Positions 370 to 6,185 of a stretch of 7,336 nucleotides of DNA are shown here, in pieces. The first letter of the stretch is position 1. Each line of letters begins with the position of its first letter. A program made the position numbers and the translations under genes. Below the pieces are notes generated by a model, which worked only from the letters and a program-made list of their open reading frames with translations, made no database searches and was not told the DNA's origin. Source of the stretch: a virus (Duplodnaviria; Heunggongvirae; Uroviricota; Caudoviricetes). The stretch lies in IMG/VR virus record IMGVR_UViG_2541047844_000003, one strand, 5' to 3'.

Positions 370-410
370 TGCCAGCATTCTGCGATGACGGAAGTGCTGG
401 CATTTTTTTT
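370..410 (+). terminator. rho-independent terminator
   Basis: Perfect 8-bp inverted repeat TGCCAGCA (370-377) / TGCTGGCA (395-402), followed by a run of eight T (403-410), about 20 nt after the stop at 348-350. Confidence 0.65.
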
Positions 411-527
411 GGTAATGTGCGAGTCCATTTCATAAAATACGGGTACTGGAACTGGACGATATAATCTAAAAGATACCATTATCAGTAGCATTAAAATCGC
501 TATGTGCCGATACGGATATAAATTATA

Positions 528-580
528 TTGATTGTTCACATACCTTATTGGATATTACTGAGGGGTGTTTATATAAGGTG
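528..580 (+). promoter_or_regulatory. candidate sigma70 promoter and ribosome-binding site for the 169-aa ORF
   Basis: AT-rich region 413-585. Possible -35 TTGATT (528-533), 17-nt spacer, -10 GATATT (551-556), and Shine-Dalgarno AAGGTG (575-580) 5 nt before the ATG at 586. Assigned by eye only. Confidence 0.3.
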
Positions 581-585
581 TAACG

Positions 586-1095
586 ATGATGTGGAACTTT
601 GACAGTGCCGACTTAAGTGCAATAGCAGCAGGCATTTCTGCGTTTGGCACATTAGCCGCAGCGGGGTCGGCGCTTGCAAGTTGGTGCACGTCAAAAAAAG
701 CGCTGCAGCTACAAAATAGAGTTTACCTTTATGAGTCTTTAAAGGCTTGCGCTGAGAGAGCCAATTCATCAGCTAAAGATAAGCGCGGATCTGAATGGAG
801 CGTTAATGATGCAGCGGATATCATCAGGTGCCTAGTACGGGCGATGGAGCTCATCAAGCAGGATAGCCAGCAGAAAGAAGGTAATCAGGCATTAATGTTG
901 AAACAGTACTTTGTTAATCTGCTAATAATGGAACTGTACGAGGAAGTTCATAACGGTGATGCGGCTGATTCTGTTTTTAAAAGTACGGAACCTACACAAG
1001 TACTTGATAACTTATGGAGCAAATGGCAGGAGGCTATAGCTTTTTTTGATATTTGGAATTACCCAGTTGCGACTGAGGAAGACTTGGCAGACTAA
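586..1095 (+). CDS. hypothetical membrane-anchored protein, 169 aa, function unknown
   Basis: Track ORF starting ATGATG. Acidic N-terminus (MMWNFDSAD), then a ~24-residue Ala/Gly-rich hydrophobic segment (LSAIAAGISAFGTLAAAGSALASW), then KK and a ~135-residue soluble, apparently helical domain with an acidic C-terminus. No family recognised. Sits where lambda carries ren, between the replication genes and ninB. Confidence 0.6.
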   Translation: MMWNFDSADLSAIAAGISAFGTLAAAGSALASWCTSKKALQLQNRVYLYESLKACAERANSSAKDKRGSEWSVNDAADIIRCLVRAMELIKQDSQQKEGNQALMLKQYFVNLLIMELYEEVHNGDAADSVFKSTEPTQVLDNLWSKWQEAIAFFDIWNYPVATEEDLAD

Positions 1096-5224: not shown

Positions 5225-5721
5225 TGCCTCCATCATTACGAAAAGCTGTTGCTGCTGCTATTGGTGGCGGGGCTATTGCTATAGCATCTGTGTTAATCAC
5301 TGGCCCAAGTGGTAACGATGGTCTGGAAGGTGTGAGACATAATCCTTACAAAGACATAGTTGGTGTATGGACTGTATGTTACGGGCATACAGGAAAAGAC
5401 ATCATTCCCGGTAAAACGTATACCGAAGCAGAGTGCAAAGCCCTCCTGAATAAAGACCTTGCCACTGTCGCCAGACAAATTAACCGGTACATCAAAGTCG
5501 ATATACCGGAAACAACGCGCGGCGCTCTTTACTCGTTCGTCTACAACGTGGGTGCTGGCAATTTCAGAACATCGACGCTTCTTCGCAAAATAAACCAGGG
5601 TGATATTAAAGGCGCATGTGATCAGCTACGGCGCTGGACATACGCTGGCGGTAATCAATGGAAAGGACTGATGACTCGCCGTGAGATTGAGCGTGAAGTC
5701 TGTTTGTGGGGGAAACAATGA
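5224..5721 (+). CDS. rrrD: SAR (signal-anchor-release) endolysin, lysozyme family, 165 aa
   Basis: N-terminal Gly/Ala-rich weakly hydrophobic SAR segment ([20 protein letters not shown]) followed by a T4-lysozyme-like domain ([10 protein letters not shown]..., [11 protein letters not shown]). Start overlaps the essD stop (TAATG). Matches phage 21 R / DLP12 RrrD as recalled. Confidence 0.9.
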
Positions 5722-6185
5722 GCAGAGTAACCGCGATTATCTCCGCTCTGGTTATCTGCATCATCGTCTGCCTGTCATGGGCTGTTAATCATTACCGTGA
5801 TAATGCAATCGCCTACAAAGAACAGCGCGATAACAAGGCCAGTGAACTGGAGAAGGCGAACGCCACCATTACTGACATGCAGCAGCGCCAGCGTGATGCT
5901 GATGCACTCGATGATAAATACACGAAGGAGTTAGCTGATGCGAAAGCTGAAAATGATGCTCTTCGGCGCAAGCTTGATAATGGTGGTCGGGTGCTCGTCA
6001 AAGGAAAATGCCCTGTGCCATCCTCAGCCGAAACCTCCAGCGCCTCCGGCATGGGCAATGATGCCACCGTCGAACTCTCTCCAGTTGCTGGACGAAACGT
6101 TCTCGGTATCCGGGACGGAATTATCCGCGACCAAACAGCATTGAGAACGCTTCAGGAATACATCAGGACGCAATGCCTTCGATGA
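5718..6185 (+). CDS. rzpD: inner-membrane spanin subunit Rz (i-spanin), 155 aa
   Basis: ATG at 5718 overlaps the rrrD stop (ATGA). Product [40 protein letters not shown]... has an N-terminal TM helix, a coiled-coil-like central region and a C-terminal Cys, matching lambda Rz at the N-terminus as recalled. The track's start at 5706 is less likely. Confidence 0.85.
5938..6144 (+). CDS. rzoD: outer-membrane lipoprotein spanin subunit Rz1 (o-spanin), embedded in the +1 frame of rzpD
   Basis: Product [39 protein letters not shown]... has a lipoprotein signal with lipobox VVGC and a proline-rich stretch; GGAG upstream of the ATG; lies entirely within the Rz gene as in lambda Rz/Rz1. Exact start (Met1, Met6 or Met7) uncertain. 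Confidence 0.8.

Follow-up and report, generated by a model that had tools for sequence, protein, structure and literature searches.

A phrog_1779 gene upstream of ninB in lambdoid prophages encodes a predicted single-pass inner-membrane protein with a helical cytoplasmic domain

RESULTS

Genes and features of the locus

The DNA analyzed here, called the window throughout, is a stretch of 7,336 nucleotides from an Escherichia coli lambdoid prophage, and its features are collected in Table 1. The part from 300 to 1300 shares 100% identity with many E. coli chromosomes, among them that of CFSAN061770, where the locus belongs to a complete lambdoid prophage adjoining tRNA-Arg and intD. Gene order in that prophage runs O, P, ren, a DUF4041 gene on the opposite strand, a P22AR-C-terminal (Rha-type) gene, and then the open reading frame (ORF) that is the subject of this study. 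Downstream of the ORF follow ylcH/orf33, ybcN(ninB), ninE, ybcO, rusA, ylcG, quuD, a porin gene, and the lysis genes, and the ORF is co-oriented with the early right operon. An earlier note on this DNA had placed the ORF in the slot where lambda carries ren. That placement was imprecise: a separate ren is annotated in the source prophage about 3.4 kb upstream, so the ORF is located within the variable stretch from ren to ninB.

Table 1. Coordinates of features in the window (position 1 is its first nucleotide)
Feature	Position	Strand	Remarks
Intrinsic-terminator hairpin	370-410	+	Stem-loop 370-402, T8 403-410; ends upstream Rha/P22AR-type gene
Predicted sigma-70 promoter of the ORF	520-557	+	A/T tract AAATTAT 520-526; -35 TTGATT 528-533; 17-bp spacer; -10 GATATT 551-556
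Shine-Dalgarno sequence AAGGTG	574-579	+	6 nt before ATG 586, 9 nt before ATG 589; read from sequence
Coding sequence of the ORF	586-1095	+	169 aa, ATG start; phrog_1779 member, annotated function unknown
Predicted single transmembrane helix, residues 10-32 (LSAIAAGISAFGTLAAAGSALAS)	613-681	+	From hydrophobicity and family charge pattern
Predicted cytoplasmic all-helical domain, residues 36-169	691-1092	+	Ends in conserved acidic tail A-T-E-E-D-L-A-D (nt 1069-1092)
ylcH/orf33-type ORF, 33 codons	1192-1293		Overlaps GTG start of ybcN
Porin gene, OmpC/NmpC-type, 360 aa	3353-4435	-	Intact; between Q antiterminator gene and lysis cassette
Rz-type lysis gene with embedded +1-frame ORF	5706-6185; embedded 5938-6144		Embedded ORF starts with lipoprotein-like signal

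Several observations concern the neighbors of the ORF. The ylcH/orf33 frame accompanies ybcN in three annotated E. coli carriers (L018 to L020) and also in phage 82, whose record excludes the ORF at 586 to 1095. Directly after the ORF stop codon, at 1108 to 1136, lies a promoter-like TTGATT-17-CATAAT sequence, the counterpart of a "putative -35/-10" that the phage 82 record (X92588) places upstream of orf33, and an inverted repeat at about 1140 to 1168 corresponds to the "possible regulator-binding site" of the same record. The nin operon may thus have a transcription entry point of its own. Farther downstream, the prophage-borne outer-membrane porin gene is likely a lysogenic-conversion gene, and the Rz-type gene with its embedded frame is, as judged from its reading frames, the usual Rz/Rz1 spanin arrangement. 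Rfam returned no RNA family anywhere in the window.

The ORF is a protein-coding gene under purifying selection

The 169-aa frame called in the earlier note is borne out by its ATG start, by full-length homologs, and by dN/dS values of 0.09 to 0.16 between homologs 63 to 76% identical, values that cover only pairs with an estimable dS, which is saturated for most of the diverged pairs. The dN/dS values place the reading frame under purifying selection, and the ORF is, on this substitution pattern, a real protein-coding gene. Of the 60 loci examined, the ORF is intact with the ATG in 49 and truncated in 3, and translation relies on the second Met in 7. That the ORF is a chance or decaying frame without function is scarcely credible. 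Truncated or frameshifted copies do occur, in PSS-16, L060, L069, and the P0019/P0021 fragments, and near-identical alleles differ mostly nonsynonymously, though by just 2 to 7 changes. Against this stand a dN/dS of about 0.1 across deep divergence, a length of 153 to 179 aa kept in 24 of 25 aligned members at identities to the window protein down to 22%, and conservation of the promoter and the Shine-Dalgarno sequence. The substitution pattern effectively refutes a nonfunctional ORF already.

Two ATG codons stand back to back at 586 to 591, and the second, at 589, gives a protein of 168 aa. Codon 1 is ATA in 7 related loci, those with the PhiR5_1-type allele, where the second Met is used, so ATG 589 may be the conserved start. 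In the upstream alignment described below, a purine-rich Shine-Dalgarno sequence is found at the equivalent place in homologs.

The product belongs to an unannotated family of Enterobacterales prophages

In annotated carriers the product is listed as WP_000990010.1, a hypothetical protein. It matches the profile phrog_1779 over its full length (residues 1 to 169 on profile positions 1 to 169; E = 1.7e-102, PHROGs v4), and 25 of 25 aligned relatives match the profile too. The earlier note had been unable to assign the ORF to any family, and with respect to Pfam, NCBIfam, and PADLOC, which were all empty, this stands; the protein is nevertheless catalogued as phrog_1779, with its function unannotated. 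Since phrog_1779 is the ORF's own family, membership says only that the product is a recurrent phage protein. The profile search that had been proposed gave no Pfam family at E ≤ 10 and so no match to a characterized family; over Pfam-A and NCBIfam together, the window protein matched 0 families at that threshold, the Ren, SieB, Imm, Abi, holin, and HEPN models being among those searched. The defense models of PADLOC-DB v2.0.0, a library from 2023 that predates later systems, likewise gave 0 families at E ≤ 10. Scans of the 25 relatives produced only scattered single-member profile matches, all with E ≥ 0.003. Sequence and profile searches of the PDB returned only low-complexity or designed-helix noise, and no fold relatives of the window protein were found. 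The literature searched contained no mention of WP_000990010, of phrog_1779, or of the ren-ninB position.

The family is small. A word-indexed search of 5.8 billion proteins yielded 14 clusters, and when 1.84 billion representatives were searched exhaustively with a profile, 34 family members were recovered, all from lambdoid prophages of Enterobacterales. Named members, from E. coli and Escherichia albertii, Scandinavium, Pantoea, Kluyvera, and Citrobacter, are all "hypothetical protein." With a narrow alignment, since the wide alignment held no block conserved enough for the search, GTDB (one genome per species) gave a single locus and IMG/VR gave 49. The ORF is present in 207 of 5,426 complete E. 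coli genomes (about 3 to 4%), 180 of them with a full-length copy and O104:H4 among them. The 300-to-1300 query was matched at least in part by 2,938 genomes, mostly at its ybcN-proximal end. Just 2 of 50,697 phage records carry the ORF, PhiR26_1 and PhiR5_1; the PhiR phages reportedly come from Brenes and Laub 2025 (Cell Host Microbe 33:1004), a source that we infer.

The ORF has its own predicted promoter

An AT-rich, promoter-like region at 413 to 585 had been noted earlier. The base composition is as described (the intergenic stretch 351 to 585 is 36.6% GC) and the predicted promoter within it is conserved, but that promoter is narrower, occupying 528 to 556. The upstream alignment covered six lineages with differing neighbors, namely, Rha/P22AR, DUF551, unknown ORFs, and a metagenomic contig of unknown context. 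Three blocks are invariant in all six lineages, AAT at 521 to 523, TTG at 528 to 530, and GATATTA at 551 to 557; the spacer has the same length in every lineage, and the -10 element ends 27 to 30 nt before the ATG. The remaining upstream positions are 54 to 72% identical across lineages, and synonymous sites within the ORF are saturated for the same lineage pairs, which argues that the invariant promoter positions are under selection. Upstream of the A/T tract the sequences of lineages with different neighbors are unalignable. Although the promoter agrees with 8 of 12 consensus positions, and a consensus scan with a threshold of 9 missed it, we strongly predict that the ORF has its own sigma-70-type promoter of moderate strength, as a predicted rather than a mapped start.

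A second allele of the gene, found in E. coli G1/2, has a different promoter-like sequence, with TATAAT at the equivalent distance from the start. This G1/2-type allele also has a CCCCTC/GAGGGG hairpin that directly adjoins its start codon and shares bases with its Shine-Dalgarno sequence. In several homologs an inverted repeat (ATACCCT...AGGGTAT) surrounds the -10 element, and it was considered as an operator or RNA hairpin. This candidate was not supported: RNAalifold gave just -3.5 kcal/mol, pairing was 67% compared with 66% in shuffled alignments, and 197 of 500 shuffles reached the observed covariation score.

The stop codon of the upstream Rha/P22AR-type gene is at 348 to 350, and the hairpin that follows it had been described in the earlier note as a strong terminator insulating the ORF. 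Its strength is confirmed: the stem-loop folds at -20.9 kcal/mol (z = -3.56), and 0 of 200 shuffles were as stable, although a consensus terminator scan missed it owing to a stem mismatch. Its assignment to the ORF is not. The terminator sequence is common only to loci with the same Rha/P22AR upstream gene and is absent from homologs with other upstream neighbors, so it belongs to the Rha/P22AR module. On the 3' side of the ORF we found no convincing terminator and nothing at all between the stop codon and 1190; a weak terminator-like candidate with a 5-bp stem lies at 1232 to 1258, inside ylcH. GC content is 44.5% in the ORF itself, 44.7% on average over the window, and 43 to 53% in the adjacent nin genes.

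A predicted N-out/C-in membrane anchor

The N-terminal pattern reported for the window protein, an acidic tail, an Ala/Gly-rich segment, and a KK flank, is confirmed and extends to the family. The window protein has D6 and D9 in its N-tail, an uncharged run from 10 to 36, and then K37/K38, and an acidic N-tail followed by an uncharged run of 18 to 30 aa and a basic C-flank is found in 24 of 25 family members. The net charge of the N-tail is -1 or -2 in nearly all members, that of the basic flank is +1 to +4 in most, and the uncharged run is rich in Ala, Gly, Ser, and Ile/Val across the family. The positive-inside rule, applied to this conserved charge pattern, points to an N-out/C-in signal-anchor, and the whole family probably has a single-pass inner-membrane anchor of this orientation. 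The N-out/C-in anchor with a cytoplasmic domain of about 135 residues proposed in the earlier note agrees well with this family-wide prediction from charge and hydrophobicity, which gives about 133 residues. A cleavable signal peptide was considered and set aside in favor of a signal-anchor; the acidic N-region argues against it, as does the lack of family-wide conservation of the A-x-A preceding S32.

On the topology question only, it is conceivable, though quite improbable, that the protein is not membrane inserted and that its N-terminal Ala-rich helix is a soluble, Ala-coil-type oligomerization element of a cytoplasmic oligomer. The window allele is marginal in hydrophobicity, with a 19-residue Kyte-Doolittle maximum of 1.59 and a crude insertion energy of the hydrophobic segment of about +2.7 kcal/mol. 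Seven small residues (S11, A14, S18, G21, A25, S28, and S32) line up along a single heptad face of the helix, and the AlphaFold2 model has one unbroken helix over residues 10 to 63; both would suit such an element. Most homologs, however, score 1.6 to 2.5 on the Kyte-Doolittle scale (1.6 to 2.3 in the N-terminal segment of intact close homologs), and 18 to 30 successive uncharged residues with acidic-outside and basic-inside flanks recur in the 24 members noted above. Eisenberg mean hydrophobicity is 0.51 to 0.76, and the hydrophobic moment is low, at 0.03 to 0.32. The helix at the anchor is modeled with low confidence, and pLDDT is below 50 for residues 1 to 29, as expected for a helix packed against lipid, not protein. 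Within the preferred membrane-anchored protein, the heptad face of small residues suggests helix-helix association.

The exception in length among the 25 aligned members, P0041 (288 aa), has about 130 extra N-terminal residues, with long uncharged, hydrophobic stretches, before the conserved anchor and helical domain. These stretches may add membrane spans, and if they are spans, the region would be modular.

A predicted helical cytoplasmic domain with an acidic tail

Structure prediction, proposed in the earlier note and done here with an alignment of 18 sequences, gave a helical bundle of six main helices for residues 36 to about 161, with a mean pLDDT of 82. Ala, Leu, Ile, Trp, and Phe account for most of the conserved positions of the domain. 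Among close homologs the polar conserved positions are scattered (C55, R58, N60, K66, and D75), and in the wider family Q43, N60, W71, and W147 are among the positions that are nearly invariant. The acidic C-terminal tail, T-[DE]-E-D-L-x-D, is invariant in close homologs and present in many distant ones. No recognizable catalytic motif was seen among the conserved residues of the helical domain. A HEPN assignment, suggested by the pairing of a helical domain with a transmembrane helix, was rejected, as the conserved E-R-A-N is not followed by a conserved His and there is no R-x4-6-H motif. Because the domain is modeled as a compact bundle of helices, ends in an acidic tail, and lacks a catalytic signature, partner binding is favored over catalysis: the most likely function of the cytoplasmic part of about 133 residues is to bind another protein, not to act as an enzyme.

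Genomic neighborhoods of homologs

The survey of this slot that the earlier note had called for was made on related prophages, and their ren-to-ninB stretch has, besides the ORF or its 46% allele, DUF4041/SNIPE and Rha/P22AR genes in some carriers. Close homologs (46 to 100% identity) all lie immediately before ninB, usually 187 to 194 nt upstream, with ylcH between. The second allele, WP_000017329.1, is about 46% identical and occupies the same position before ylcH-ybcN in E. coli G1/2 (L018:6854-7363) and in 25 other E. coli genomes. In O104:H4 the upstream neighbors and rusA are pseudogenes, and the ORF is intact. The idea that the ORF is functionally paired with SNIPE or with its Rha/P22AR neighbor upstream was considered and rejected, both genes being absent or pseudogenized in other carriers.

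Distant homologs (18 to 23% identity) sit at other accessory positions of lambdoid prophages, and intact copies persist in short prophage remnants. The Pantoea homolog P0048 follows an N-like gene in the pL operon, including in a remnant of about 6.5 kb without late genes. On that Pantoea-type contig (L007:4389-10850), the remnant, which may be a decayed prophage or a satellite-like element, has besides the intact P0048 only replication-initiator, cro-like, repressor, N-like, xis, and int genes, and an ars operon and host genes flank it. Another distant homolog lies beside HolE-like and pyocin-immunity genes in a short remnant adjoining host genes, and on Kluyvera-type contigs a homolog has replication genes on one side and an S-type pyocin gene on the other.

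DISCUSSION

Possible roles of the product

That the ORF is a functional accessory gene of Enterobacterales lambdoid prophages, with its own transcription unit and a bitopic inner-membrane product, is in its several parts either established or strongly predicted from the sequence comparisons. The conserved private promoter, the patchy distribution, the divergent alleles at one site, the survival in decayed prophages, and the placement in a stretch that in some carriers includes the gene for SNIPE, a proven defense protein with the membrane layout predicted here, together favor a product that is made in the lysogen and benefits the host-prophage pair. The role that we put first, tentatively and with rather less than even confidence, is that of a prophage-expressed membrane protein acting against incoming phages; the earlier note had likewise brought up superinfection-exclusion and abortive-infection proteins as possible parallels. 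Because the ORF has its own promoter, it would be expressed in the lysogen while pR is repressed. The product would then expose about 9 residues, its acidic tail, on the outside, pass the membrane with one Ala/Gly/Ser-rich helix, and keep the helical domain in the cytoplasm, where it would counter superinfecting phages at the inner face of the inner membrane. It might interfere with entry of the phage genome; alternatively, the cytoplasmic domain might sense a phage component and the small-residue helix might self-associate, with damage to the membrane as the outcome. More specifically, phrog_1779 could be a hitherto unrecognized single-gene anti-phage system, a nonenzymatic, N-out/C-in tethered helical protein that, expressed in the lysogen from its own promoter, would recognize a component of the incoming phage at the inner membrane and either block entry of its genome or trigger membrane failure by self-association of the small-residue helix; we regard this fuller proposal as possible and hold it more loosely still. 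Counted against an anti-phage role are the empty PADLOC search, the 8-of-12 promoter, the marginal hydrophobicity of the anchor, a GC content that is not foreign, the lack of a clear 3' terminator, and the lack of linkage to SNIPE.

Since the ORF is co-oriented with the early right operon and in close homologs always stands directly before ninB, it would also be transcribed from pR in lytic growth and could equally serve the phage. The main rival is accordingly an early lytic accessory protein, expressed chiefly from pR with N antitermination, as the dispensable nin genes are, and membrane anchored so as to modify host division, envelope, transport, or host defense. We consider this unlikely, if by no means negligible. 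Besides the shared orientation and the position upstream of ninB, which is fixed in all close homologs, it has in its favor that P0048 is encoded in a pL early operon just after an N-like gene, that N-modified polymerase would read through the upstream terminator, as is established in lambda biology, and that no terminator separates the ORF from ylcH-ybcN. A separate selected promoter would, however, be needless for a gene served by pR, intact copies are found in prophage remnants without lytic genes, and the ORF is missing from most otherwise similar prophages. The linkage to ninB may instead reflect hitchhiking at a module junction.

Expression in the lysogen need not be directed at phages at all. 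The product might be a lysogenic-conversion factor unrelated to phages that alters stress, envelope, or colonization traits in the manner of bor, lom, and iss. The ORF's own promoter and its retention in prophage remnants would suit this role, as would the other conversion genes carried by the same prophages (the porin gene in the window and iss in relatives). We nevertheless think it improbable: the predicted domain faces the cytoplasm and not the cell surface, the family has very few members, which are restricted to the early regions of prophages, and searches of Pfam, PHROGs, and NCBIfam gave no similarity to known conversion factors.

If the protein does protect the lysogen, as in the role that we put first, it would represent a compact defense family sharing no domain with known systems, and the ren-to-ninB junction of lambdoid prophages would be a slot that carries defense genes, SNIPE among them. 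If it serves the phage instead, it would represent a new membrane-targeted early function. The ORF is easy to test, being carried by about 3 to 4% of complete E. coli genomes, the O104:H4 outbreak lineage included, and present on two inducible phages, PhiR26_1 and PhiR5_1. It is one among many unannotated prophage genes, and its value is that of a well-delimited candidate, with promoter, start, topology, and domain bounds predicted; we consider it a sound candidate of moderate interest for screens of defense and accessory genes.

Comparison with known systems

By sequence, the ORF belongs only to the unannotated phrog_1779 and fails every sequence-based membership test for known families. Like ren of lambda, it is dispensable and has the replication genes on one side and ninB on the other. 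The Ren protein and the ORF product are unrelated, however, both in size and in predicted architecture, and the ORF is not a replacement for ren.

The earlier note had also pointed to accessory genes of the moron type, a concept said to go back to Juhala, Hendrix, and colleagues, who used it for extra genes of lambdoid phages. The likeness is that the ORF is an extra gene between conserved neighbors, with its own predicted promoter, present in some close relatives and absent from others, as the contrast between 207 carriers and 2,938 matching genomes illustrates. It differs in having no convincing terminator on its 3' side, a GC content that is not distinct, and, in close homologs, an unusually constant position next to ninB. 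The classic moron description therefore fits the ORF only partly.

A further parallel comes from the DUF4041 protein of 500 aa encoded in the same ren-ninB stretch, at L001:12128-13630 on the minus strand of the source prophage, about 1.7 kb upstream of the ORF and outside the window, and at L003:2190-3692. In phage PhiR26_1 this gene is annotated PD-lambda-1, a system since renamed SNIPE, a defense nuclease with DUF4041 and GIY-YIG domains that cuts phage DNA during injection (PMC13190303). SNIPE has been shown experimentally to be a single-pass, inner-membrane-anchored protein of N-out/C-in orientation (PMC13190303). The genes for both lie in the ren-to-ninB stretch of one prophage type (CFSAN061770 and PhiR26_1), and the ORF product is predicted to have the architecture shown for SNIPE, with a short periplasmic N-terminus, one transmembrane helix, and a cytoplasmic part. 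The differences are that the ORF product has neither DUF4041 nor a nuclease domain, is a third of the size, and is encoded on the opposite strand; a BLASTP comparison with SNIPE of the same prophage gave a best E value of 3.9. SNIPE is absent from PhiR5_1, O104:H4, and G1/2, all of which carry the ORF, and the ORF mostly occurs without SNIPE. The ORF product may act like a membrane-tethered sentinel, but it is not a member of that family.

Prophages also encode small inner-membrane exclusion proteins, such as SieA of P22, SieB of lambda and P22, gp15 of HK97, and the lactococcal Sie2009, each specified by a single gene with its own promoter. Such proteins are patchily distributed, are expressed in the lysogen, and block other phages. 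The ORF product differs from them in that it has no sequence or profile similarity to the Pfam, PHROG, and PADLOC families so annotated and in that the bulk of it is predicted to be cytoplasmic. By kind, judged on gene organization and predicted anchoring, it resembles these small prophage membrane proteins that exclude other phages.
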